Source: a virus (lineage: Duplodnaviria > Heunggongvirae > Uroviricota > Caudoviricetes). Taken from it: a stretch of DNA of 48,662 bases. The stretch lies in the IMG/VR virus record IMGVR_UViG_2547132418_000015, one strand, 5' to 3'. Numbering within the stretch: position 1 is the first letter of the stretch; each line of letters opens with the position of its first letter. Shown here piece after piece: positions 1,587 to 37,417 of the stretch. Under the pieces are notes generated by a model. The model did not search any database. It was given only the letters and a program-made list of their open reading frames with translations, and was not told the DNA's origin. The position numbers and the translations under genes are program-made.

Positions 1587-2659
1587 TCAATTGTCCCCGG
1601 TGTTAACAGTTCCGTATTCTCCGAACGCTGGATCTCTGTCGGGAAACGCACTTCAAAATCATCCAGACCGGTAACACCTGCCACCGCACGGATAATACGG
1701 GAGGGGGCAAGTGCACCGCCCGGCGTCACCTCATTAAAAAACATGGTATTAATGGCGTGAGTAATAGCCTGTTTCAGTTCGGCTGTCTTCGGCGATATAT
1801 AAATCCGTGGATTTACCGGCTTTGCCTTTGGTGCAAATACCGTGACATTTACACCATCAGGCTGTCCGACAATCAGGCCGGTTATCGGGTCAGTATGACC
1901 GGCGATATAATCCGCCACGCGTTCCACATCTGCCGGTTGTGGAAAAATATTGCTCCGGTTATCCATAACAAACGTCACCCCGACTGTGCCACCGCCTTTC
2001 CATGTCGGAAAAGACCAGGCACGGGTAACGCCGCTGACTTCACGTGCCCAGCGAACATAATCAAACTGATTACCGCCGAACGGAGGATACTGGACACGAT
2101 ATTCCAGCCGTGACAGCAGCTCCGCTGCACTCTCAATATCAGCTCCACCGGAAAACCCTTTTACAGTGATGGCATCGGAAACAACACTGGCAACCGGGGT
2201 GATCAACGTTAAAAGGGTATTCTCACCGGTATTTCCTGCCTCACCGGCAGCCAGTGCGGTAACGGTAATTTCCGTCGTTCCTGCACGGTCAATCACAATG
2301 GCATCAGCCAGGCTGTAAACCACACCATCAGCACGCTGCCAGCGTGTACCGGCAGGAATGGTGGTCGCTGCCGATGTGGTGACAGTCAGCGGGCCGCTGG
2401 CGGCTGTCGCCTGTTTGCGGCGCACGCCCCAGAACCGGCAGTGCTCCAGCAACTCATCTTCATCTGCTGTCGACGGGATAATCTGCCGTCCAACCCATGA
2501 AATATGCTCGTGAAAACCGGCAGCAAGGCCCGCCTGAGCATAAGCAATGGCACTCAGCGTTTTTTCACGGGCCTGAGGCCAGCTACCCGGCAGGCGCTGT
2601 TCAATATTCTGTTCTGTACGGGCAATCAGCGATGATAATGTCGGTGGTGAATAAGCCAT
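1577..2659 (-). CDS. Baseplate J-like protein (Mu gp47-like)
   Basis: 360-aa ORF in the conserved baseplate cluster. Confidence 0.8.
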   Translation of the reverse strand: MAYSPPTLSSLIARTEQNIEQRLPGSWPQAREKTLSAIAYAQAGLAAGFHEHISWVGRQIIPSTADEDELLEHCRFWGVRRKQATAASGPLTVTTSAATTIPAGTRWQRADGVVYSLADAIVIDRAGTTEITVTALAAGEAGNTGENTLLTLITPVASVVSDAITVKGFSGGADIESAAELLSRLEYRVQYPPFGGNQFDYVRWAREVSGVTRAWSFPTWKGGGTVGVTFVMDNRSNIFPQPADVERVADYIAGHTDPITGLIVGQPDGVNVTVFAPKAKPVNPRIYISPKTAELKQAITHAINTMFFNEVTPGGALAPSRIIRAVAGVTGLDDFEVRFPTEIQRSENTELLTPGTIEWL

Positions 2660-3097
2660 TTAAACCCCGTTAAATGCTGCTTTAAACTCATAAGGAATAA
2701 CGGAACCATCCGGTAATGTCAGTGCAATGTAGAGGTATAACCAGCCCTGATGTAACTGTTCCGCTCTGACGTTAATCGCACTCACCCGGCCCGCTGTTTT
2801 CAGCCATTCCAGCGCCTCTTCGGCATACCCTCTGGCGCGTTCCAGCGTATCCGGTGTGGCTTTTTCACGTGATAACAGCCACAACCGCGAACCGATGGGG
2901 CGGTCGCGGTAACTGTCACCCCACCATCCACGGCGATCATCTGAACCATCCGGCAGCGTGTCAGAATCCAGCGCGCGCCGGTCGGTAAACAGGGAGATTG
3001 TCACATCGGTCGTCAGACTGTCGTCGGTCAGCATATCAATGCCATCCTGTGCAATATCGCCGCGTCCGTTCGTCCAGATAATGGCTAAATCGGTCAT
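2660..3097 (-). CDS. Baseplate wedge protein (Mu gp46-like)
   Basis: 145-aa ORF between the spike and the J-like gene. Confidence 0.7.
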   Translation of the reverse strand: MTDLAIIWTNGRGDIAQDGIDMLTDDSLTTDVTISLFTDRRALDSDTLPDGSDDRRGWWGDSYRDRPIGSRLWLLSREKATPDTLERARGYAEEALEWLKTAGRVSAINVRAEQLHQGWLYLYIALTLPDGSVIPYEFKAAFNGV

Positions 3098-3687
3098 TGC
3101 ATCGGCCCTGTGGTTCCGCCGCTGTCGCCACGGTGGATATGCTTATCCGTCGATTTGCCATTGATGATGGCATCCGGGGCAGTAATATTGCTGTCGAACT
3201 GGCTTTTACCTTTAACGCCCAGACCTTTCTGGATCTCAACGTCGCCGGTAAACGTGGTTCTGGGTGTATCAACGGTCATGCTTTCATCAGCGTAAATCTC
3301 AACCGTTTTACAGGTAATGATGCAGCGCCCGTCCTTTGTCAGCCTGATACGATGCCCCTCGTGGTGGTAAATGCCTGCATCACCCGGTTCAAGATTTGTC
3401 GGGCGGTAGCGGCGGTCTTCCACCACAACGGCAATCCCCTGATCACGTTGTGCACCCACACAGGCAATCAGCGCCTCTGCGCCCGGCAGAGGAACGCTGA
3501 AATGCCCGTAATTTTGCAGGCGCTCCACTTCATCAGATTCCTCATCATCCAGCAGACCGACCTGCAGGTTCTGAACCTTTCGCCCGTCGTTAATCACGTT
3601 AACAACGGCACGCGCAAGCATCAGACGCACACGACGCATCAGCGGTGTCAGCAGGCGGTTCATGGCGGAATCATTTACTCTTTCCAC
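3094..3687 (-). CDS. Baseplate spike/assembly protein (Mu gp45-like)
   Basis: 197-aa ORF following the gp44-like gene. Confidence 0.75.
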   Translation of the reverse strand: MERVNDSAMNRLLTPLMRRVRLMLARAVVNVINDGRKVQNLQVGLLDDEESDEVERLQNYGHFSVPLPGAEALIACVGAQRDQGIAVVVEDRRYRPTNLEPGDAGIYHHEGHRIRLTKDGRCIITCKTVEIYADESMTVDTPRTTFTGDVEIQKGLGVKGKSQFDSNITAPDAIINGKSTDKHIHRGDSGGTTGPMQ

Positions 3688-4808
3688 GGCGGCGTTTTCT
3701 CCGGGTGTCTGCGATAATAATCTTCAACCAGCGCATCAACGCCATCATTACCATCCCCTCTGGATTTGCGGTCGCTTTCAACCGGCACCAGAAAGCCTTC
3801 GCGTGGTGCAAGGCTGACGCGGGTTTTCAGCCCGTCCTGGTCATTCAGTATCAGGGTGACTTTGCTGACCAGTAATTCCGTGGTTTTGATGGCATATTTC
3901 GAGGCATCAATAGTGACCAGCAGGTTTGGCATCCAGAGTTGCCCGTCCTTGCGAGTCCATCCGTCAATTTCAGCCTCAAAGGTGATGGATTTTGCCAGTC
4001 TGCGGCGTTGCTCACGCAGGGCGCGGGCCTGTGCATCCTTCGCCGTAATTTTGCTGTCGGCAATGATGATCATCGGTCTGTAACGGGTTACATCACTGTC
4101 AGTGGCGGTCCCTTTCCGGGAGACGATACTTTTCGCATCAATATCATCACCCTCAGCGCCGTTTGCGCGGGCATAACCCTTGACAATGTATTCGCTGAAC
4201 CGGTCACGGAAATCTTCGTCAAAATCCACCGTCAGCAGATTTTTCCCGAGGATCAGCTCATCAGTGACCGTACTGGCAGCCCGGCTGAATACCAGCTCTC
4301 CGGCGGCATTGCTGGTCATCAGTACACCACGTGCGCGGGAGGCCCGCACCAGCGCTTCGTAAACCGTTTCTGAATGGTCAAGCGTAAAAGACGGAAACGA
4401 CGCTGCGCTTTCCTTGTCTGACAGCTCCCAGCGAACGGTAACGCCATAAGGGGCGCACAGGTCACGCGCAATCTGCTCCAGTGTGCGGTTTTTCCACTGT
4501 CCGCCACTGTAAACGGCAGCACAGTCAATCAGGTCAGCCGTTTTGTCACGTCCGGCGACAGTGATTTTCATACTGTCAGCGGTCATCTGGCGTCGCCGTG
4601 AATCGATATAACCGGTGCAGACAATCTGCCCCCCGATTTCGAGCGTGAACTTCTTCCCCGGAGCCAGCCCGGATAAATCCGTGCCCGGTGGCACGTTCAC
4701 CCCCAGCTCAAAATATCCGGCTACGGATTCAATCGAGCGGGTGACAGAGACTGACGTCCAGCCGGTAAAAAGCCTGCCATCCGTTCGCAGCGTGACGGTA
4801 TTACTCAT
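3675..4808 (-). CDS. Baseplate hub/tail protein (Mu P-like)
   Basis: 377-aa ORF, synteny with Mu P. Confidence 0.75.
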
Positions 4809-6288
4809 TAATCACCTCAATACTGACACCACCGGGAACAAACAACGGGTTGCTGATACCGTTCCTGCGGGCCAGCCGTTGCCAGTTCCGGCTGTTTCCT
4901 GTGTAACGGTACAGGGCCACCATTGCAGGCATCGTCTCCGGCAGACGGTGCGTTTCACTACCCGCCAGTTGCAGCCCGCGTTTTTCCAGGTCGGCAACAA
5001 CCAGCAGACGCAGTTGCGTAAGCTGAACGCTGTCTGTCGAAAAGCCCTGCTCAGATGCCGTCAGAATGACGGTATCCAGCGCAGCCCCCAGCATGGCGGC
5101 TGTTTTTCCGATATCGGACACACTTTCAAATACCGGGGGCGTGGCTGTACCACTGTCTGAAAAGGATACCTGTGAAAAGCCGCCGTCCGGGGTTATGGCA
5201 GTTAACTGTAACTGTCCCTGTGTGACGGTAGCAGATGTGCTGCTGGCCCCGCTGGCTGTGCCGGTTGTGGTGGACGGGGCATCCAGTACAGGTGCACGGG
5301 TGGCATTATCCCTCCGGCGACTGAAATCCAGTGCCGCAGTCAGTGCCTGGCTGGCAGCTTCTGCCCGGTATGTCTGCGCCGCTGCCAGCATGACGTAGTT
5401 CAGTGTGGCAATATTTTTTTCTGCAACCGGACTGTTGTACGAGGTTGTGATTGCCCCCTGTCTGCCTGCGGTGGCGGCATGGCGACGTTCGAACCGCTGC
5501 GCCAGACGGTTCCAGGTGGAAAATGCTGTCCGGGTATCGCATAACGATGAAACGCCGGATAACGCCCCCATCAGCGAGGAGGCCAGCATGGCTGGTTTAT
5601 TTATCAGGCCGGTCACAGAGCCTTTCATCGCAGAAAGCGATCCCATCAGACCGCTGACAGTCTGCGTAACCCCCAGATTGTCCACCGCATCACTGATATC
5701 ATCGATGACACCGGTTACAGCTTCCATCACGGCGGTTGCCGCCGCAGTGCCATCTTTTACGGTCTGCCAGACAGAGGACAGCGTATCTCCCAGAGAACCG
5801 GTTACAGCAACGGACTGTGCCGGTACGGCTGCACTGGTGTCTGTCTCTGCGTCCGGGGCAGTATCCTGCAACGACGGATAAACGGTAACGGTGAACGCGT
5901 AATAATTCAGTTCATCCGCTTTAGTGCGGCATTCCCATGAATCCACCATGACGGCCACAGTGCCGAAATCAGGATGTACCAGCTCACCGCTACCCGGAGC
6001 ATCAAGAGCATCCATCAGCGCACCCGCTTCATCTCTGGCAGTCTCTGCGTTGCTGTTCAGAATGCAGATGCTGAATGTGCGGGAGCGAAGCTTTTTCCCC
6101 AGGTCGTTGACCCCGCCGGTATCACGTAACGGGTACTCACGTTTAACCAGACGACGTCCGCCAGCCTGTTTTTGCTCCTCGATGACGAGAAACGGCACGT
6201 TACGGAACGTGCCTTTGCCGGTTGTTTTCCTGCCTCCACCGGTTTTATCCCGGACAGCATTAACGGCATTTAAAGCATCTTCAAACAT
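4801..6288 (-). CDS. DNA circularisation protein N-like tail protein (Mu gp43-like)
   Basis: 495-aa ORF directly downstream of the tape measure gene. Confidence 0.75.
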
Positions 6289-6292
6289 GGTT

Positions 6293-8368
6293 TTACCAGC
6301 CTGTAATGTAGTTATCGCCCGCGTAAATATTCAGCCCCATACCATCCTCGGTGACGCGGGAACTGGTCAGACGTAACCCCTCGCCAAGTTCGACGCGCAG
6401 CGAGGCTTCCGCATTCACTTTTTGCTCCTGCGGTTCCTTATCCGTGGCCGTCCACTTCTGATACAGGTCGGTTACAAAACCGCCCAGATACTCCCCGGCG
6501 ACACTGCCCAGCGTGGCACCGGCAACCGTACCCAGCGGTCCGGCAAGGCTGCCAACGGCACCGCCGAGCCATGCACCGGCTGTACTGCCAATTGCGCCTG
6601 CTTTTTCATGGGTTGACGCCTGCTCATCCATCAGGACGGGGGCAAGCTGGAGTGCCCCCATTACCGGGCCACCCAGACGTGACAACGCACGCCCCGCGCC
6701 TTTCCCCATCCAGCCCAGCGCCCCGGCACCTTTTGTCACAACCCGACCGATCGCACTGCCTGCAAGTTTGTTTCCGATACCGGAAAACCCCCCGCCAGCG
6801 GCACGCCCGGCATCAGCCAGCTTTCCGACCGCTCCCGTAACCAGTTGCCCGGCAGCACTGCCTGCAAGCCTGCTCAGAAGACCGGATTTACCGGGTAAAG
6901 GTAATGGTGCAGGCCGTGCCGTTACCGGTACGCCGGGTGGGGGTAATGCCAGAACAGGGCGTGGTGCAGGTAATGCCAGCGGCTGTGGCCCGGACAGCAA
7001 TAACGGCTGGGGGGGGAACAGGGGCGTCATGCCTTTGCCTTTCCGGGTGCGACCACCACGGCCACCGCTTCCGTAACCGCCGAACCCGTGAGGCCAGTTA
7101 GTGACAAACACACGCTGAATGCCGGTGCCCTGCAACAGCGTCTCAGACGTCATGGCATCCGGGACCGGCAGACCTGCCTGCCCACGTTTGCGGTTTCGCA
7201 TCCAGCGCCACATACGACGCCCGGTTTTAAACGGATAACTGGCAACCTGCCATGAGGGGTTTGCCACGGCCCAGCCTGCTCTCAGGGCTTTATTGGCAAG
7301 CCAGACAGACACCAGAACAGCAGCCAGTTTTTTCAGGCTGACAATATTCTGGTCAACCCATGCCAGCGCATCTTTACCCGGTTTCAGCCAGCGCCATAAT
7401 TCCTGCGCCGCGATTTTTACCTTTCTGAACGTGGTCAGGAATTTCTGACCAATGTTTTCTGCCAGTGCGTCCAGCTCCCCGGATTTATCCGCCGCATCGT
7501 GCCAGTTAAGCACCCGGCGCATCTCGTTCTTGATTTCTTCAAAGGGGCCGCTGTTTGCCACCTTCGTGCGAAACTCAAGCAGGTTGCCCTCCATCTGGGC
7601 CATCATCCCGTCCCAGGAGTTCATGGCAGCCGCCTGTGCGCCTTCTGACTGCTCCAGCAGGGTCCGGAATACCGTCAGAATGGCTTTCTTGCCCAGCTTG
7701 CCTTTTTCACCCAGCTTACGGATTTTTTTCTCATCCTTACCCGTTGCATCTGCCAGCACCTTGTAAACGTTGATACCGTAACCGGTCAGCAGGTTGGCGT
7801 CCGCCGCCGTGATTTGCTGGCGGGCAAACATCTGTTTGAACTGTAACGAAGCCCCCTGCGCGGTGGGTAAATCCCAGCCATGCATCGCGCCCTGATTCTG
7901 TAGCATGGTGATGAACTGTTTTACCTGGGCGTCAGTCATGCCAAACGCCGTTGATGTGCGGATTTCCTGCAGAACGCCGCCCAGCCCCCAGGTGGTTTCT
8001 TTTGCGTTCTGCTTCGCCCACGCCATCATGGCCTGTGCTCTGGCCTTATCGCCGTGATACAGCGAGTTCATGGCGATAATCTGCTGCTCACGCTGGGCGG
8101 CGGCACCAATAAACAGTTTATTGGCGGTGTAACCCACGCCAGCGATACCCAGCGCCCCGGCTGACAGCATTCGGAATGTACGGGTTGACAGTGAACCCAT
8201 TCTGTCAATGGCACCAGAAACGCGCACAACCTCCATACGCAGGGCACGAAGGGAACTTTGTCCGCTACGGGACAGGGCGTTTATCTGGTTCGAATACTCG
8301 CGGGAACGCCGGGAAAGATTGCCATTAAGATCAATAATGACAGACGCCTTTAAGCGTTTCCCGGTCAT
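6293..8368 (-). CDS. Tail tape measure protein
   Basis: 691-aa ORF starting MTGKRLKAS with a Gly/Ala/Pro-rich C-terminal part, between chaperone and baseplate genes. Confidence 0.85.
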
Positions 8369-23374: not shown

Positions 23375-23764
23375 TTACAGAAGTGAGGGCTGGTACTGGC
23401 GGTATTTCAGCCGTCGCATCCGGCGAATGGCTTTGTACACCGTATTGAAAGTGACACCATAACGGGTGGTCAGTTCGCTGACGTTGCGACCGTTAAAATC
23501 ATTCCAGATACGCAAATCCCGAATCAGCGAGTCCAGAACCTGACCGCGTGGAATGTAGACCTGGCCGCCGCCCAGATGCTTACAGATAGCCACAACAATC
23601 TCCAGTGAATGGGCAGGATCAACACCCAGCCGGGACAATTCCCCGCGTAGTAAATCGTTCAGCTCCGCCAGCAGTGCCGGAAAGCGTGACGTATCCTCTG
23701 CGGGATTGTCAAGATGTGCCAGGATGGTGTCATCCTGCAAATCACCAAATAAATCTTCCGTCAT
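23375..23764 (-). CDS. mor: Middle operon regulator Mor (Mor/C family)
   Basis: 129-aa ORF immediately downstream of the GemA-like gene. Confidence 0.85.
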   Translation of the reverse strand: MTEDLFGDLQDDTILAHLDNPAEDTSRFPALLAELNDLLRGELSRLGVDPAHSLEIVVAICKHLGGGQVYIPRGQVLDSLIRDLRIWNDFNGRNVSELTTRYGVTFNTVYKAIRRMRRLKYRQYQPSLL

Positions 23765-24312
23765 TGTGCCATCCTCCGCGTCTTTCTGGCATGGGCATAA
23801 GCCGCCGTCATGGCATCATAGCCGCGCAGTTCACGCCCGGACGGACTGACCGGCAATGGAAGCCCGTGACGGGAAAAGGCTTCACGAATACAGCGGATGT
23901 GCCACTGTTTCAGGGTTTCAAGCACAACCTGCAACGATTCTCCGTGGCACCACGCCAGTGTGGAAACCCCCTGTCCGCCGTTGCGTTTCGCTGTCAGGCG
24001 CTGAACATATTTATCCAGCGCCACATCACCGCCATCGGTAATAAAACCGTCTTCTGCCATCTGCTGCCAGACTTTGTATACCTTCTCGCGGGGAGTGGCA
24101 TACCCCTTAAAGCGGCGACGTGGATGTTTATTCAGCTTCTTAAAGCCGCGTTCTTTCATGGCATCGAGCACCTGTTCCAGTTGCGTGACCGTCAGCTCGC
24201 GGCAACTGGTTTTGCCCGTTTTCTGCATCAGAAAAGCGCGGTAAGTGTCGTCGTCGAGTTGTAGCTCCCGACGGGCGACATGGATTAATTTAATCAGGGA
24301 TGTGCGATTCAT
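23761..24312 (-). CDS. gemA: GemA-like regulatory protein (Mu gp16)
   Basis: ORF 23761..24480; start placed at ATG 24312 (MNRTSLIKLIHVARRELQLDDDTYRAF...) with GAGGTG ribosome-binding site. Confidence 0.8.
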   Translation of the reverse strand: MNRTSLIKLIHVARRELQLDDDTYRAFLMQKTGKTSCRELTVTQLEQVLDAMKERGFKKLNKHPRRRFKGYATPREKVYKVWQQMAEDGFITDGGDVALDKYVQRLTAKRNGGQGVSTLAWCHGESLQVVLETLKQWHIRCIREAFSRHGLPLPVSPSGRELRGYDAMTAAYAHARKTRRMAQ

Positions 24313-24342
24313 TTGCTCACCTCTCATATTAAGGAATGAGAT

Positions 24343-24759
24343 ATGAAAATTGATTATGACGAGATAGCCAGAATATTTGATGTTTTTCTGGAGGCCGACA
24401 CCGCATTCATTCGACTGGAAGATGTCGGCTGGGATTGTTCTCAGCGGCACAGCGACAGCCATCAGAAGCTGGTTTTCCATCTTCTGTTGCTGGTTGAAAA
24501 TGGTTTTATCAGCAACAGATATCTGGAAACAGGCACCGCAAAAAGCATTGGTCTCACCCCAACAAGCCTCGGATATTCATATTCAGGCACCAGTGTCAGA
24601 CTTACACAAGATGGTCATGATTTTGCGAAAGCACTACATCAAAAACCCATTCTTGAGCGCATAAAACAGGACCTTGCCGACGCCCCGATGACGCTCGTAA
24701 CAGACGTCGGCAAACAGTGGTTAACCTCGTTTCTTAAAAAGAAACTCGGGATTGAATAG
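24343..24759 (+). CDS. Hypothetical 138-aa protein on the opposite strand inside the phage early region
   Basis: ATG with AAGGAA ribosome-binding site; diverges from gemA across a 30-bp gap; 3' end overlaps the 24721..25032 gene by 39 nt. Confidence 0.55.
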   Translation: MKIDYDEIARIFDVFLEADTAFIRLEDVGWDCSQRHSDSHQKLVFHLLLLVENGFISNRYLETGTAKSIGLTPTSLGYSYSGTSVRLTQDGHDFAKALHQKPILERIKQDLADAPMTLVTDVGKQWLTSFLKKKLGIE

Positions 24760-25032
24760 TTCCCTGTTCATACGTTGCAGCGCATCAAGGGCGGCGACAG
24801 CCGCCACTTTATTGTTACCATCAGCAATAGTGCGGAGATTTTCAATAATCCAGTGAGGACTCAGTGACTCAGCAATAATGCCAAACCGGTACGCCATGAC
24901 TTCATCAATAGCTTTTTCATGAGACGACTCATATACAAAACTCACAAAGTCATGCACTTCTTTTTTCGGCAAACCACCGGCAATCAGCAGGGCGGCAAGC
25001 TCTTCTGATTTTGAAAATACACCATTATTCAT
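24721..25032 (-). CDS. Hypothetical early-region protein
   Basis: ORF 24721..25047 (GTG); ATG at 25032 with AAGGTG ribosome-binding site is the likely start. Confidence 0.55.
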   Translation of the reverse strand: MNNGVFSKSEELAALLIAGGLPKKEVHDFVSFVYESSHEKAIDEVMAYRFGIIAESLSPHWIIENLRTIADGNNKVAAVAALDALQRMNRELFNPEFLFKKRG

Positions 25033-25033
25033 A

Positions 25034-25727
25034 TCACTCACCTTCACAATTCATGCACGCCGTGTCATCGCCCATATCGCAGTGGTTGCATTTCTGCCCA
25101 CCACAATGAGGGCACTCTTTCAGATATTCAGGGTTTTCATTACCGCAGGTCGGGCATTCCTGTTTCACCGTGGTGAATGTCCCCAGCCACGAATACGAAT
25201 TTTCACCGACTGTCTTTTTCCCCGTTATTTCTGAATCAGAACTAATACAGTGTTTTTCAACCCATGCCACACGTGCTGAATTCAGGTGGCATCTGGCCAA
25301 TTTGCTTTCGTTTCTGTAATGTTTGCTGTCCCGGTTAAATGGCAATTTCTCATTCAGCCCTGCTGAGATAAAGTCCGCATGTAATTGTTCTAATGCGGCT
25401 TCACTGTCTGCACCGGTTGATTCAAAATAATCGTAAGCATTGGCACATAATCCGGCAGCCCGGGTAAATACATCATCGCCCGTCTCCATTGCCCCATTCT
25501 TTAACCATCGGTTGTAGGCTGTATAAAAACTATAAAGTTGCTTTCTGATACAGGTAGTGGCAGTTCCGCCATTAACTGACGCTGGCGTAACATAGCCAGC
25601 TCTGCATAAAGCAGAACGAAGTATATCCAGAACCTGCCAGGCATCTTCTCCTTCAATCACGCTACAGTTTTTGTACACCAGGACGTCCCGGCCACAACTT
25701 TTATCAATACCCCAGTCTTCAAATTTC
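25034..25727 (-). CDS. Hypothetical protein with C-terminal Cys-rich (zinc-ribbon-like) tail
   Basis: ORF 25034..25792; likely GTG start at about 25727 with GGAGG ribosome-binding site overlapping the upstream stop; C-terminus CPTCGNENPEYLKECPHCGGQKCNHCDMGDDTACMNCEGE. Confidence 0.55.
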
Positions 25728-26258
25728 ACAACCAGCCTCCTGCACCACACCCGGTGCTGATGAAAAATCAATGATGAGATAACGCAGTACATGGTCGGTG
25801 ATATTCCAGGCGCTGGAACTGCAAATAAACCGCCCCAGCCGGATATCGATATAAGCCATCACAAAACGGGGCATTCCCTGTTTGCACATCTCGTCATCCA
25901 CTTCTGCAACGATGTGAACGGACTCACAGGTCAGTACGCCTGTCGCAAACTCTTTTGCCAGTGCGGGGATGGTATTACCTTCCACCCAGGGTAATGAGCG
26001 ACGCCAGTTGCACCACACCGCATCATCAACAGCAGGCTGCTCAGTTGCGTTTCGTCTTACCGGCGGCGTCTGACGCGGGCGCGGAACGTCATAAAATCCG
26101 TTGCATTCGGTGAGCACTCCGGCATCAACCGCATCACGCAGGAAATACACCATTGCGGAGGGTGGCATCTGCATTTTTTCAGCCAGAACCCCGCAGGTCA
26201 GGCGTCCGTAAGCCCGTAATAATGTGCTGACACCATTCAGAATTTTTGCATCAACCAT
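25719..26258 (-). CDS. Hypothetical early-region protein
   Basis: 179-aa ORF with GAGGA ribosome-binding site. Confidence 0.6.
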   Translation of the reverse strand: MVDAKILNGVSTLLRAYGRLTCGVLAEKMQMPPSAMVYFLRDAVDAGVLTECNGFYDVPRPRQTPPVRRNATEQPAVDDAVWCNWRRSLPWVEGNTIPALAKEFATGVLTCESVHIVAEVDDEMCKQGMPRFVMAYIDIRLGRFICSSSAWNITDHVLRYLIIDFSSAPGVVQEAGCEI

Positions 26259-26356
26259 GTTTTATTCCTCAGTAATCTGTTTCAGGCGCGAGCAATCCCC
26301 TGACGCATCGCGCCATAATTAAAAGAATGTGAATTAATTAAATATTAATGGTGGTA

Positions 26357-31777: not shown

Positions 31778-32302
31778 ATGATGTCTTTTGAAATCAAAGA
31801 ATGGTTTAATGCGAAAGAGCTGGAAGGGATGCCTGGTGTACCAAAGTTGGCGACTAACATTACCAGGAAAGCTGTGGCGGAAGATTGGGTAAAACGTCAG
31901 CGTCACGGTGGGAAAGGTGTCGCTTATGAGTATCACATCAACAGTCTGCCAGAAGAAACACGCAGGGCCATTAAAGGAGCCTCACTTTCTGATAAACCAG
32001 TGCATACATCAATCGCCCATACAGTTGATGAGAGGCTAATTTATGCAATGAGCTTCTTAACACCAGATGAGCAGGCCGCAGCTGTGGAGATCATTCGTGT
32101 GGCAGGGATTAAAGGACTTATGCCTACAATTGTCAGTAAAGATAAGGCATTAGAGGCATTAGGGATTACTGTGGAGCAACAGAAAACCCTGCAAACTCTT
32201 CAGGCATTACCACCGGAAAAAGTGAGAGAGATTTTGTCTCAGTATGAAGGCAAAGAACATAATTTCCCTGTAAGAGAAAACGATGTAAAGAAAGCTGTAT
32301 AA
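31778..32302 (+). CDS. c: Repressor c (Mu/D108 family)
   Basis: 174-aa ORF with AGGA ribosome-binding site; C-terminus ...KVREILSQYEG...KKAV as in Mu-type repressors; divergent from ner. Confidence 0.85.
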   Translation: MMSFEIKEWFNAKELEGMPGVPKLATNITRKAVAEDWVKRQRHGGKGVAYEYHINSLPEETRRAIKGASLSDKPVHTSIAHTVDERLIYAMSFLTPDEQAAAVEIIRVAGIKGLMPTIVSKDKALEALGITVEQQKTLQTLQALPPEKVREILSQYEGKEHNFPVRENDVKKAV

Positions 32303-32641
32303 CAACCAGGTAATAGCTAAGACATAAACTTCACTCCAGGCAATTACATATGTAAGATACCCAAACAGTGATGATTGTTTTTGACACACATCACTTGCTG
32401 AAAGCCTGGTTGTTACCGTTTTTGAAGCATTTTTGAAGCTGTACTTGAAATGATGCGTGAAGTAATTGCTTTTCGTGTCTTTAATGAATCAAAAGCTGTT
32501 TCCAACAATCTTTCGCGTTTCAAGATGTAACGGCTAAAATCTGTCCTACAGGCTTGCAAGCCCCACTAAATCTAATCCCGCCAAATCCCGAATAATCCAA
32601 TGTCCTCCCGGTTTTTTTCGTACTTCAAGTGAATCAATACA
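32303..32641 (-). other. Prophage left end with transposase binding sites; terminus at 32641
   Basis: Minus strand from 32641 reads TGTATTGATTCACTTGAAGTACGAAAAAAACCGGGAGGACATTGG...; repeated TTTTCGT-type motifs. Confidence 0.85.
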
Positions 32642-32654
32642 GTGCTGATTTATG

Positions 32655-32957
32655 TCAGACGGGATTTTGCTTATCAATTATTGAGAACAGAAATTTTCCT
32701 GAATCATCAATACTATACTTAGCAAGTAAAGGTGTTTTCTCATTTATCTGCTTGAGTGCAGGATCAAGGAAAGATCGTTTCAACTCTGCCAAGTTCTTCT
32801 GCTGGGATTCCGGTAAGACGAAACGGTCATTTAACCAAGCATGAGTAGTAACCCATAAGCCTGAAGATTTGAATTGAGCAAGACTTTCATAAAGGCGGAT
32901 CGTCCGGGGATTTCGAAGACTGCCACAATCGCGGAGCGAGTAGGTGGTGAACTGGTT
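32655..32957 (-). pseudogene. Remnant of a second Rep_3-family initiator gene (C-terminal about 99 codons)
   Basis: Minus-strand translation QFTTYSLRDCGSLRNPRTIRLYESLAQFKSSGLWVTTHAWL...INEKTPLL...DKQNPV aligns with the C-terminus of the rep gene at 40612-41334; cut by IS1 at 32957/32958. Confidence 0.75.
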
Positions 32958-32972
32958 GGTAATGACTCCAAC

Positions 32973-33476
32973 TTACTGATAGTGTTTTATGTTCAGATAA
33001 TGCCCGATGACTTTGTCATGCAGCGCCACCGATTTTGAGAACGACAGTGACTTCCTGCCCAGCCTTGCCAGATGCTGCCTCAGATTCTGGTTATGCCGCT
33101 CAATTCGCTGCGTATATCGCTTGCTGATAACGTGCAGTTCTCCCTTCAGGCGGGATTCATAAAGCGGCCAGCCATCCGTCATCCATACCACGACCTCAAA
33201 GGCCGACAGCAGGCCCGGAAGACGCTCCAGCGTGGCCAGAGTACGCTCACCAAAGACGCGTGCCACCACCGTCCTGCACATCCTGCCATAGGCGTAAAAT
33301 AACCAGCGCTGACGTGATTTAGCCCCGACGTAGCCCCACTGTTCGTCCATTTCCGCGCAGACAATGACGTCACTGCCCGGTTGTATGCGTGAGGTTACCG
33401 ACTGCGGTCTGAGTTTTTTAAGTGACGTAAAATCGTGTTGAGGCCAACGCCCATAATGCGGGCGGTTGCCCGGCAT
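32973..33476 (-). CDS. insB: IS1 InsB (transposase frame, made as InsAB' by frameshifting)
   Basis: 167-aa ORF ...[22 protein letters not shown]... Confidence 0.88.
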
Positions 33477-33670
33477 CCAACGCCATTCATGGCCATATCA
33501 ATGATTTTCTGGTGCGTACCGGGCTGAGAGGCGGTGTAAGTGAACTGTAGCTGCCATGTTTTACGGCAGTGAGAGCAGAGATAGCGCTGATGTCCGGCAG
33601 TACTTTTACCGTTACGCACCACGCCTTCAGTAGCTGAGCAGGAGGGACAACTGATGGAGATGGAAGCCAC
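33395..33670 (-). CDS. insA: IS1 InsA
   Basis: 91-aa [46 protein letters not shown]... Confidence 0.9.
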
Positions 33671-33729
33671 TGGAGCACCTCAAAGACACCATCGTACACT
33701 AAATCAGTAAGTTGGCACCATTATCCGGC

Positions 33730-35650
33730 AGGCGATCTGGATTATCGTCACGCTGTTAAATATGTCGCGGTAGGGATACCCGTTACCGGATACCCCCCGC
33801 ACAGATCCCGGCGTGCGCGATTTACGCACCGGGCTCCTGCCTCGGGTGTCTGGCGGTGAACCGCTCCACAGGCCATGGATGAAGAACCCGAACCCTTGGT
33901 AGCCATGCGGCTGCCAGTTTGTTTGCTTTCGTCCAGGTCGTATCATCCTTCTGGCTCCTGCGCCTGAGCGCCCGGCGCCAGAGGTTTGTTACGTGTGTCC
34001 TGAACTTCTGCATGGTGGGGAAGTTGCCCGGTACCGAGTGATAGTTCAGGTATCCCTGAACCACTCTCCTGAGCCATTTTCCCTGTTCGGGGATTGAGTA
34101 ATGCCAGCGCCTTCGCAGACCGTCTTTGATGGCTTTCAGAGTTGCCGTCATCCGATCCCGGCGGGTCTTTCGTATCAGCATGAACCTGCCGTTGCGATCT
34201 TTCCCGCTGATGTGCGTGAACCCGAGGAAGTTGAACGTTTCTGGTTTGCCTTTTCCCCTGATGGCACGGTTTTCGGCAGCGAAGCGGCCGAACTCCATCA
34301 GACGGGTTTTCTCCGGGTGAACCGTGAGTCCGAACTCCCTCAGTCTGCGCTGCATGGCTATACGGAAGCGCCGGGCATCGTATCGTTTGTCGAACCCGAT
34401 GACGATGTCATCGGCGTATCTGACCATTACCACATTGCCTGTGGCATAGCGACGTCGCCACTGATGCGCCCACAGATCGAAGACGTAGTGGAGGTATATG
34501 TTTGCCAGCAGCGGTGAGATGACCGCACCCTGTGGGGTGCCTTCCTCCGTTGCTCGCCATTGACCCTCCTCCAACGTCCCGGCTGTGAGCCACTTACGTA
34601 TGAGCCTGATTACGCTCCGGTCGCCGATCCGATGCTCTGTGAACCTGATCAGCCATTCGTGGCTCACCCTGTCGAAGAACTGACTGATGTCGGCATCCAG
34701 TACCCAGTTTACGTTAGTGCGTACCAGCCCTGTGGCCAGTGCGTCCAGTGCATCGTGCTGGCTTCGCCCGGGTCTGAACCCGTATGAGAACCCCATAAAG
34801 TCGTTTTCATAGACTGCGTTCAGGATTTTCACCAGCGCATACTGGACGATCTTGTCCTCCAGCGAGGCGATGCCGAGCGGGCGTTGTTTTCCATCCGCTT
34901 TTGGGATGTAGTGACGCCTGCCGGGCTGCGCCCTGTAGCTGCCCTAATGTAGCCTCCGGTGCAGATCTGTTATGTTGTTCTTCATGTTTCCGGCGTAGTC
35001 CATCCACCTGATGCCATCCACTCCGGCGGCCGCTTTCCTGCTCAGGGAGAGGAATGCGGCTTCCAGTGCTTCGACTGTCAGCAGGTGGAACAATGCTGTA
35101 AACCGTTCTTTCTTCCGCTGCTTCGCAGCTTCCCGCACGCGTGACAGCCTCTGTGACATGCTTTCCCGGCTCTGTGTCCGGCGCATGTGTGGCTGTTCCG
35201 CGTTCCCCTTGGCCCCGCTCCTTCGCTCCACTGACTCCGCTCCTTTCGGGTTGTTCGCCTGCTTCGCCGCTACTATGAGCGAGTCCGACTTCTCCTCTCC
35301 GTACATCACCGGCTATGACTCCTCGTCTTCCCGGTGCGGGCCGTCTCCGACACTGGCAGATGGTCAGAGGGGAGATCTCCCGGTTCCCGCGTAGAGATCG
35401 TATTGACATGCCAGGGTCTCAGACCCCGCCGGGTCCATGTGGCACTCGCAGTATCGCACCCTATGATGTTGCCTTCCGTTAACAGTACAACGTCGGCACC
35501 CGGTAATTTAATATACATTTCGTGGCTCAATGGCTGGCCTGTCAACACCCCTGTCAACGCTTCGCCCCATACCTCGCGGTATGCAACGCATGACTCGGGG
35601 ACCTTGTGGATTGCTGGTCCTTCAATGGTCGGGGACTTTCACCCCTTGAT
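33730..35650 (-). mobile_element. Group II intron 1, boundaries approximate, 5' end possibly truncated
   Basis: Reverse transcriptase ORF; domain V-like GAGCCCGGTGCGTAAATCGCGCACGCCGGGATCT on the minus strand at about 33803-33836. Confidence 0.6.
33822..35309 (-). pseudogene. Group II intron reverse transcriptase/maturase interrupted by an in-frame TAG
   Basis: ORFs 34944..35309 and 33822..34832 are in the same frame, separated only by TAG at 34944-34946; motifs AAGVDG, FRPGRSQHDA, YADD. Confidence 0.8.
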
Positions 35651-35674
35651 CTCTACCGGTCTCCCGGTGAGCAC

Positions 35675-35690
35675 TGTATGTATAACCAGT
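35675..35690 (+). promoter_or_regulatory. LexA (SOS) box upstream of the umuD-like gene
   Basis: CTGTATGTATAACCAG fits CTG-N10-CAG, 26 bp upstream of the ATG. Confidence 0.75.
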
Positions 35691-35715
35691 AAAATTAGAG
35701 TGTCAGGAGGAAAGA

Positions 35716-36146
35716 TGAAACTACAACTTTTCAGCACCGGGAAAGAACTCCCGCCACAGGCCCATCCATTGTTTGCCGATCTGGCCAGCTGCGGTTTTCC
35801 CAGCCCTGCTGCTGACTATGTCGAGTCCGATCTGGATCTCCATGATTACTGCATACGGCATCCGAGCGCGACGTACTACCTGCGTGCCAGCGGAGACAGC
35901 ATGGCCGACGGCAGTCTGTACAATGGCGATCTGCTGGTTGTGGACAGTGCTGAAAAGCCGCGGCACGGCGATATCGTTGTCGCCAGCATGCAGGGGGAGT
36001 TTACGGTGAAACGGCTTCTGCTGACGCCGCGACTGACGCTGCAGCCCATGAATGCCTCCTGGTCGCCGATTTATCCTGATCCCGACGAGCTGGATATCTT
36101 TGGCGTCGTCACGCATATCATCCACCGCCCGAGGGAGATGTACTGA
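35716..36146 (+). CDS. UmuD-like translesion polymerase accessory protein
   Basis: 143-aa [37 protein letters not shown]... with Cys-Gly cleavage site; track ORF 35334..36146 is a spurious upstream extension. Confidence 0.88.
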
Positions 36147-37417
36147 TGTTTGCCCTGGCCGATGTGAACAGCTTCTATGCCAGCTGTGAACGTGTTTTCC
36201 GCCCGGATTTGAAAGGAAAGCCGATAGTCGTCCTGAGCAACAACGACGGGAATGTAATCGCTCGCAGTGCCGAGGCGAAGCCCTGGATCAAAATGGAAAC
36301 TCCGTGGTTTCAGATAAAAAACGAAAGATACCCGGAAAAAATATATGCGTTTTCAAGTAACTATGAACTTTATGCCTCGATGTTGGCGCGCGTGATGAAC
36401 AGCCTGGAGGAACTGGCCCCCAGAGTGGAACAGTATTCAATTGATGAGATGTTCCTCGATTTGACCGGCGTGGAGCACTGTATGGAGCTTGAGGACTTCG
36501 GCCGGCAGCTGCGTCAGCACGTGTATGACTGTACCCACCTGACCATTGGCGTGGGCGCCGGACCAACGAAGACCCTCGCAAAATCAGCCCAGTGGGCCTC
36601 AAAAGAGTGGAAACAGTTTCGTGGCGTACTTGCTCTGACCAGGGGAAATCCGCAGAGAACGCGGAAACTGCTTTCACTGCAGCCGGTTGAAGAAATCTGG
36701 GGGGTGGGTAACCGTATTGCACGCAAGCTGAATGTACTGGGCATTAAGACCGCGCTCGATCTCGCCCTGACGAACCCGGCCTTCATCCGCAAAAATTTTT
36801 CTGTGGTCCTTGAGCGAACGGTACGGGAACTGAACGGGGAAAGCTGCCTTTCGCTTGAGGAAGCCCCTCCGACGAAACAGCAAATTGTCTGCAGCCGCAG
36901 TTTTGGCGTGAAGATCACGGAGTACGAGTCACTCCGTCAGGCTATCTGTCAGCACGCAGAGCGGGCCTCTGAAAAACTGCGTAAAGAGCACCAGTATTGC
37001 CGGCATATTTCCGTTTTCATCAAAACGTCTCCGTTCGCCATTAAAGAGCCTTACTACGGCAACGTGGCTACGGAAAAACTTCTTACACCCACTCAGGACA
37101 CCAGGGACATCATTGCAGCCGCTACAACGGCTCTGGAGCGTATCTGGAGGGATGGGCACCGGTATGCCAAAGCCGGAGTTATGCTGAATGACTTCACCGG
37201 CTCCGGCGTTTCGCAGCTGCAGCTGTTCGACGAACGCCCGCCACGCCCTTACAGTGCTGAGCTGATGAAGGTTCTGGACGGGATCAACAACTCAGGGCTG
37301 GGTAAAGTATGGTTTGCGGGGCGGGGTATTGCCCCGGAATGGCAGATGAAACGGGAGATGCTTTCTCCTGCTTATACGACACGATGGTCAGATATTCCTT
37401 CAGCGAAACTGGCGTAA
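36146..37417 (+). CDS. UmuC-like error-prone DNA polymerase V catalytic subunit
   Basis: 423-aa [22 protein letters not shown]...SNNDG..., Y-family polymerase; start overlaps the umuD-like stop. Confidence 0.9.

Follow-up and report, generated by a model that had tools for sequence, protein, structure and literature searches.

Two overlapping genes on the minus strand at positions 25034-26258 of a viral DNA sequence (IMG/VR record IMGVR_UViG_2547132418_000015, Caudoviricetes) encode proteins of 179 and 231 amino acids (aa), the second of which ends in four CxxC motifs. The complete stretch of 48,662 nucleotides (nt) that was analyzed is hereafter called the window. A previous reading of the letters (the original prediction) had described the two genes as an uncharacterized pair in the early region of a transposable phage, and both open reading frames (ORFs), their strand, and the cysteine-rich end of the longer protein were found as described. 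The gene order around them (B, kil, gam, gp11, X, gemA, mor), with identities at the level of phage Mu, identifies the window as carrying a Mu-type transposable prophage in minus-strand orientation. Because the pair is positioned between gam and gemA of this prophage, just downstream of gam, it can be placed in the semi-essential early region, in agreement with the previous assignment. Sequence comparisons make it nearly certain that the pair consists of an orthologue of Mu gp11 and a chimera that carries Mu gp13 as its C-terminus, both in a Mu-type early operon. The positions of all features are summarized in Table 1.

Table 1. Positions of the gene pair, its modules, and the surrounding features in the window
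Feature	Coordinates	Strand	Remarks
gp11 orthologue, 179 aa	25719-26258	-	ATG start; TGA stop at 25721-25719
231-aa chimera (module A + module B + gp13 zinc module)	25034-25729	-	GTG start; TGA stop at 25036-25034
Shine-Dalgarno sequence AGGAGG	25736-25741	-	within the gp11 coding sequence
Module A (residues 1-55)	25565-25729	-	small beta-strand plus helix module (predicted); portable, rare
Module B (residues 56-161)	25247-25564	-	helical (predicted); motifs FYxAYxxWLxxGA, GLCxN, PFN, (H/Y)xNxxRxxWV
Linker (residues 162-186)	25172-25246	-	SSDSEITGKKTV then GENSYSWLGTF (the latter homologous to the Mu gp13 N-terminus)
gp13 zinc module (putative; residues 187-231)	25037-25171	-	CxxCGN..EY.K.CPxCG..KCxxCDMGDDxxCxxC; eight Cys; acidic (isoelectric point [pI] 4.4)
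530-bp cassette	25206-25735	-	sole stretch non-homologous to Mu-type relatives; replaces gp12 and the gp13 start codon
Transposase	31363-29375	-	
B	29336-28398	-	
gam	26881-26357	-	
gam-gp11 spacer	26259-26356	-	98 nt
Gene after the chimera	24721-25047	-	103-108 aa; phrog_1988
Antisense ORF, 138 aa	24343-24805	+	antisense to the early operon
gemA	ends at 23761	-	
mor	23764-23375	-	
Repressor gene	31778-32302	+	

The 179-aa protein was recognizable as the orthologue of Mu gp11 (Mup11). It showed 93% identity to the Mu protein over residues 1-174 (compared via the identical gene in locus L009), was colinear with it over the full length, and is encoded in the same place, directly downstream of gam. 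The Pfam domain Gp11_C (PF25754) was detected at residues 90-166 (2.9e-39, 133.7 bits against a cut-off of 27), and phrog_1949 matched at 1.5e-105 over positions 1-175 of 176. The window copy comprises 179 aa, whereas that of Mu comprises 176 aa, and its last residues (..QEAGCEI) are derived from the swapped cassette described below: the final six or so codons and the stop codon fall within this cassette and carry the ribosome-binding site (RBS) of the next gene.

The 231-aa gene starts with a GTG codon (25729-25727), which is separated by a 6-nt spacer from the AGGAGG sequence and lies 8 nt ahead of the TGA that ends gp11; the coding sequences overlap by 11 nt (25719-25729, GTGAAATTTGA). Because the RBS is located inside the first gene and the two genes overlap, the arrangement fits translational coupling of the second gene to the first, as originally proposed. 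The GTG start was annotated by PGAP in E. coli OZ040490 (WP_244588664.1), was used by independent gene callers in three public assemblies, and coincides with the first residue of two homologues of the N-terminal module (P0063 and P0073). The alternative start, an ATG at 25792 that gives a 252-aa reading in the mechanical ORF list, lies 74 nt inside the upstream gene; it was rejected because it has no RBS and because the homologues and annotations point to the GTG. The 231-aa protein matched phrog_6418 from end to end (3.5e-166, residues 1-231 of 231), and its exact sequence was indexed in 157 blocks of a public assembly collection. The same gene call, with the same neighbors, was found at three places from different sources, representing 24 contigs. 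The fusion sequence is already catalogued in phrog_6418, in RefSeq, and in many public assemblies.

When 1.84 billion representatives were searched exhaustively with phmmer, the 231-aa protein was split into three independently occurring parts, at residues 1-52, about 60-165, and 175-231. The PHROG families concurred, with phrog_6418 corresponding to the whole fusion, phrog_2510 to the middle part (module B), and phrog_5584 to gp13. At the nucleotide level, blastn alignment with a closely related E. coli prophage (L004) showed 97.7% identity up to position 25205 and 94.8% from position 25736, and alignment with Mu showed homology at 25023-25198 and then again from 25736. The upstream breakpoint lies at the RBS, inside the end of gp11, and the downstream breakpoint lies in the short overlap of gp12 and gp13; the exchanged DNA is of nearly equal length (530 bp in the cassette and 531 bp in Mu gp12). 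Because the cassette lacks a stop codon and the ATG of gp13 has been lost, translation continues into gp13. The comparisons identify the 231-aa protein as a three-module chimera, formed by a cassette exchange in which Mu gp12 was lost and the incoming DNA became joined to gp13. Mu gp12 (Mup12, formerly E13; 176 aa) resembles the insert in occupying the slot between gp11 and gp13 and in the length of its DNA, but it is unrelated in sequence and has its own stop codon. No BLAST match to gp12 was found in the fusion ORFs, consistent with the first 175 residues being unrelated to it, and module B was rejected as a form of gp12 when its profile was compared with gp12 by hhalign (probability 0.14%).

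Three diverged alleles of the fusion, from the window, from L012, and from E. coli OZ040490 (L005), differed at 17-48 nucleotides and retained the frame and the linker. The ratio of nonsynonymous to synonymous substitution rates (dN/dS) between the window and OZ040490 was 0.29 overall and 0 in the zinc part, and the values among the fusion alleles were 0.29 and 0.55. Because three alleles keep the frame at a dN/dS of 0.29, phrog_6418 matches the full length, and the identical protein recurs in the 157 indexed blocks, the fusion is a genuine gene under purifying selection. Among 61 gp13 loci in IMG/VR, 56 encoded a separate protein (46-113 aa), four encoded this fusion, and one was cut by the contig end. 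The gp12 slot was occupied differently across Mu-type phages, holding gp12, no gene, or the cassette. In particular, the 183-aa gp11 directly abuts gp13 in two Mu-type phages of IMG/VR without gp12 (L027 and L028, positions 2451-3171), which means that the slot can be empty. Mu-type phages with identities down to approximately 55% retain the order gp11, gp12, a variable part, gp13, a gp14-like gene, and gemA, some of them without gp12. The slot thus acts as an exchangeable accessory locus between conserved flanks, and such loci usually house genes for host interaction or counter-defense. In these terms, the four-CxxC protein does not represent a new type of gene: next to Mu gp11, an exchanged cassette has been fused to Mu gp13. 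The result is a mosaic allele of the Mu gp12-gp13 slot, a modest finding among known, uncharacterized genes.

The tail of the chimera (CPTCG...CPHCGG..CNHC...CMNC, with cysteines at residues 192, 195, 206, 209, 214, 217, 225, and 228) contains the only cluster of its kind in the window. A six-frame scan for at least four CxxC within 45 aa found it once and found none in 20 shuffled sequences; the pattern is far beyond chance. Residues 176-231 showed 91% identity to gp13 of Mu and 95% to those of D108 and SfMu, and phrog_5584 matched the tail at 1.1e-38 (profile positions 5-60 of 60). In an alignment of 13 members of the gp13 family with 45-90% identity to the window protein, the eight cysteines, a G, a P, a K, and the CDMGDD motif were all invariant, and the pI of the module was 4.0-4.7 in 12 of the 13, with a net charge of -7 for the module in the window. 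AlphaFold2 modeled the module with a predicted local distance difference test (pLDDT) score of 80-90. The zinc module presumably binds two zinc ions through its eight cysteines. The description of the tail as zinc-ribbon-like is supported by these eight invariant cysteines, though the matches to the Pfam zinc-ribbon and DnaJ models were below threshold (Zn_Ribbon_1, 15.8 bits against a cut-off of 25; DZR, 14.6 bits against 27.3). The central cysteine-rich domain of DnaJ (PF00684) was rejected, with 16.3 bits against a cut-off of 32.7 and motifs (CPTCGNEN, CPHCGGQK, CNHCDMGD, and CMNCEGE) of which none has the form CxxCxGxG. Sequence and profile searches of the PDB returned nothing for the tail beyond a weak match to the RadA zinc ribbon.

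Mu gp13 (Mup13, formerly E14; 60 aa) shares with the tail the eight cysteines, the CDMGDD motif, and the position just upstream of a gp14-type gene and gemA. In Mu, it is a separate protein, with a 14-nt overlap between its ATG start and the end of gp12, whereas here it forms the startless C-terminal tail of a 231-aa protein; a scan for in-frame starts found none with an RBS at the gp13 N-terminus of the chimera. In this respect, the chimera departs from most members of the family, which are separate small polypeptides (46-63 aa) with their own start. The linker that precedes the module had a pLDDT below 50 at residues 162-184. Outside the Mu-type phages, gp13-like genes (53-113 aa) were observed in lambdoid-type prophages of IMG/VR (L051-L057, around positions 2800-5200), immediately upstream of a gene for a 210-aa DnaQ-like exonuclease and near the integrase gene. 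The Lar-type anti-restriction proteins, which have a zinc ribbon, are likewise small, cysteine-rich, early phage proteins, and one relative of module B (P0031) carries a Lar domain in the same C-terminal position after module B. This is an architectural analogy and not homology: Lar (PF14354) was rejected as a relative because the gp13 profile compared with P0031 by hhalign gave a probability of 5% and no Pfam Lar match was found in the 231-aa protein.

The two modules in front of the linker differ in how widely they occur. Module A has few relatives, the phmmer matches P0063 (112 aa) and P0073 (64 aa) covering residues 1-52 and 1-45, respectively, and was modeled by AlphaFold2 as three strands and a helix with a pLDDT of about 70-80. 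For module B, 559 representatives (50% identity level, matches at E<=1e-3) were found, the majority of them stand-alone proteins of about 100-130 aa, with phmmer matches down to 2.5e-36 and a match to phrog_2510 at 1e-29. In an alignment of 98 sequences, a W, a G, the C of GLC, and the P-F pair were invariant and an N, an R, and a W were nearly so; the window protein has every invariant column of the family (the W, G-L-C, P-F-N, and N..R..W motifs). The AlphaFold2 model of module B was all helical, with six DSSP helical segments, a pLDDT of 93.9, and a predicted template modeling score of 0.86. Members of the family are encoded by many phages of Proteobacteria, both lytic and temperate, within arrays of small early genes, and several paralogues can share one genome. 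For example, the lytic phage tuntematon (L008) encodes three (gp178, gp181, and gp188, at 2736-3062, 3501-3821, and 6340-6705) within 4 kb of small hypothetical early genes, and its relatives have up to five copies. Module B was also found in tandem repeats within one chain and together with other partners, namely DUF551, a dATP/dGTP pyrophosphohydrolase, the Lar domain, and coiled N-terminal segments. Plasmids, in which it was sought in conjugative leading regions, were nearly devoid of it, with one match in 72,556 records.

The differences among the fusion alleles were clustered at residues 120-150 (25280-25370 in the window), between the PFN and (H/Y)xN motifs. Over this stretch, no difference separates the OZ040490 allele (L005, 2335-3030) from the stand-alone module B encoded by the RM11911 Mu-type prophage (L006, 3963-4352), which indicates recombination inside module B. 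The chimera is similar in construction to the mosaic Ea22-type proteins of lambdoid exo-xis regions, which are likewise early-operon accessory proteins composed of portable domains and linkers (PMC10834534). DUF551, a partner of module B, is named as a portable domain in that work, and genes for gp13-like and module B proteins also occur near the integrase gene in lambdoid-type prophages. On the other hand, no Ead_Ea22 Pfam signature was found in the 231-aa protein or in the 34 relatives of module B that were scanned, and the C-terminal domain of Ea22 has an alpha-beta fold, whereas module B is predicted to be all helical.

Searches for function gave little. Scans of both proteins and their neighbors with Pfam, NCBIfam, and PADLOC gave only Gp11_C above threshold, and neither protein matched a PADLOC-DB defense or counter-defense profile at E<=0.1. 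A Pfam scan of 60 stand-alone relatives of module B gave no match, that of 34 multidomain relatives gave partner domains only, and NCBIfam contained no model for the module. Sequence and profile searches of the PDB gave no match for gp11 or module B, the structural matches of module B in BFVD were all uncharacterized phage proteins, and the module was nameless in every source checked. The profile-library scans of Mu gp12-gp15 and of the extra genes of SfMu were also blank. The public names of these genes are all "hypothetical protein", and literature searches on Mu gp11, gp12, and gp13, on the PHROG, VOG, and Pfam identifiers, on the locus tags, and on the classical cim and arm functions turned up no assignment of a function to them. 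Two of the checks suggested with the original prediction, Pfam profiles and AlphaFold models, thus yielded Gp11_C for the first protein and, for the second, a tail below threshold in Pfam with a confident model of module B and the pLDDT of the tail given above. Clear homology to a Mu gene of established function had been named as the finding that would overturn the original prediction. Homology to Mu genes is indeed clear for gp11 and gp13, but both are listed as hypothetical in the Mu record. The word "uncharacterized" still holds because the families of gp11, gp13, and module B have no established function; the notion of a single novel protein gives way to that of a three-module chimera.

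We propose the following explanation of the pair, which, taken as a whole (identity, origin, and function), we consider evenly poised between right and wrong. Its identity part is nearly certain, as stated above: both genes are transcribed with the early operon, the second being translationally coupled to the first, and modules A (about 50 aa) and B (about 105 aa) are read in frame, via a linker of 25 aa predicted to be disordered, into the eight-cysteine module of gp13. We infer that the fusion arose as a by-product when cassettes were exchanged at conserved flanks and has been tolerated, and that the modules of the chimera probably act as their separate counterparts do elsewhere. The functional part of the proposal is more tentative, and we lean slightly against it even as the best available suggestion: the chimera may be a dispensable accessory protein of the early lytic phase whose binding to a host protein would serve host take-over or counter-defense. 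The role in host DNA metabolism or defense raised with the original prediction is neither favored nor contradicted by these data. An accessory, phage-specific role is suggested because module B occurs in arrays of small early genes and is nearly absent from plasmids, and because the gp12 slot is variable. With two zinc ions at its core, the gp13 part would form a small and strongly acidic knuckle suited to protein binding; since the pI is low in 12 of the 13 members examined, we infer protein rather than nucleic-acid binding. The conserved site of module B (W, G-L-C, P-F-N, N, and R) might recognize a target or ligand common to many Proteobacteria.

Several points weigh against this proposal. 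The fusion, which may bring no functional benefit, is a minority state among the viral loci, and the cassette was present in two of the 5426 complete E. coli genomes. Initiation at an in-frame GTG (codon 188) might in principle yield a separate zinc protein of 44 aa. The case for zinc binding comes only from the conserved cysteines, and acidity argues weakly against nucleic-acid binding. As for module B, its invariant polar residues might just as well belong to the active site of an enzyme or to a core with a purely structural role.

The first alternative is that the fusion is adaptive, the gp13 zinc knuckle serving as a targeting or adaptor element that carries whatever is attached to it, here module B, to a shared partner from the host or the phage, and the chimera thereby having a function absent from its separate parts. 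The gp13 module is found C-terminal to at least six unrelated N-terminal partners, being fused elsewhere to the N-termini of P0012, P0057, P0066, P0082, and P0106 in addition to that of the chimera, and module B is followed by another C-terminal zinc ribbon, the Lar domain, in P0031 and by a tail rich in CxxC motifs in P0040. The retention of the linker in three alleles under purifying selection is also consistent with this idea. However, gp13 is separate in the great majority of viral loci (56 of 61), the linker is predicted to be disordered, and the Lar and gp13 modules are non-homologous. Furthermore, the breakpoints match the ordinary gp12/gp13 junction, as the accidental loss of a stop and a start would predict. 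We regard an adaptive fusion as unlikely.

Somewhat more doubtful is the suggestion that module B acts on a small molecule, such as an immune signal derived from a nucleotide or a cofactor, either destroying it as a small enzyme or sequestering it as a "sponge", with the zinc tail incidental. Polar and aromatic residues (W, the C of GLC, PFN, E, N, and R) are conserved across phages of very different hosts, and the family is confined to phages. The small size of the domain, its tandem repeats in one chain, and the presence of several paralogues per genome would also be in keeping with such an activity, as would the fusion of one relative to the dATP/dGTP pyrophosphohydrolase. These same conserved residues are also accommodated by the target-binding site of our proposal or, as noted above, by a structural core. 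In a more speculative reading, which we consider improbable, module B would represent a new, widespread, phage-only class of effectors, with an unseen helical fold and a conserved pocket that neutralizes a host immune signal or a conserved host protein, and the gp13 knuckle, acidic and with two zinc sites, would be a portable adaptor joined by phages to various effectors. If this were true, the chimera would be a natural effector-adaptor fusion, and module B would be the founding example of the effector class.

The zinc tail might instead be a nucleic-acid-binding finger, making the chimera a transcriptional or translational regulator of the Mu program, with gp11 as a possible DNA-binding partner. 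The regulation of mom by Mu Com provides the model for such a role, and two regulators, gemA and mor, are encoded in the same region. In its first half, the gp13 profile is similar to ribosomal zinc ribbons and to the C4 ribbon at the N-terminus of the DNA-repair protein RadA (E 3.9e-4, a match of only 25 aa), but the similarity to RadA is limited to generic CxxCG..CPxCG knuckles. The strong acidity of the module and the invariant acidic DMGDD also stand against this role, and we consider it very improbable. Finally, an origin of the ORF as an artefact (a frameshift introduced by sequencing) or as a pseudogene (a dead fusion remaining after recombination), which the rarity of the arrangement and the removal of the normal start codon at the junction might suggest, is extremely unlikely in view of the frame kept in three diverged alleles at low dN/dS, the identical protein in independent sources, the strong RBS, and the full-length PHROG family.

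Module B is of interest in its own right as a sizeable phage-restricted family with a very confident predicted structure and with no Pfam model, name, or solved relative, and gp13 is of interest as a portable, acidic, putative zinc knuckle. The structures and interactions of module B and of the eight-cysteine module of gp13 could be studied cheaply, both being well delimited and present in the best-known of the transposable phages.

Counterparts of the transposase, B, gam, gemA, mor, and repressor genes are annotated in the Mu record, and the Mu left end (TGTATTGATTCACTTGAAGTACG) begins at 32640 on the minus strand. From position 32642 onward, the DNA (region 32560-36300) was 100% identical to E. 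coli plasmids that carry IS1, umuD, a replication initiator, and the group II intron gene ltrA. DNA of plasmid type therefore seems to be the insertion site of the Mu-type prophage.

Some further observations concern the immediate neighbors. The spacer between gam and gp11 contains a GC-rich hairpin (GGCGCGA...TCGCGCC) with no T-run; it was rejected as a notable element because its fold energy was ordinary (z -1.49). The gene after the chimera is of the SfMu gp14 type and not that of Mu gp14. Its ATG begins 1 nt beyond the stop codon of the chimera, and it gave a single weak PADLOC match (PDC-M42B, E 0.0094). The antisense ORF, located where Mu has gp14 and gp15, matched phrog_585 at 5.5e-31 but Pfam DUF2513 only at 0.018. 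This ORF, which is possibly an independently expressed "moron", shares sequence with the end of the 108-aa gene, and a hairpin resembling a terminator follows it at 24790-24805. The gemA gene is listed with 239 aa (23761-24480, minus strand), a reading that overlaps this antisense ORF, whereas the homologues and annotations use an internal ATG that gives a protein of 183 aa (24312-23761).

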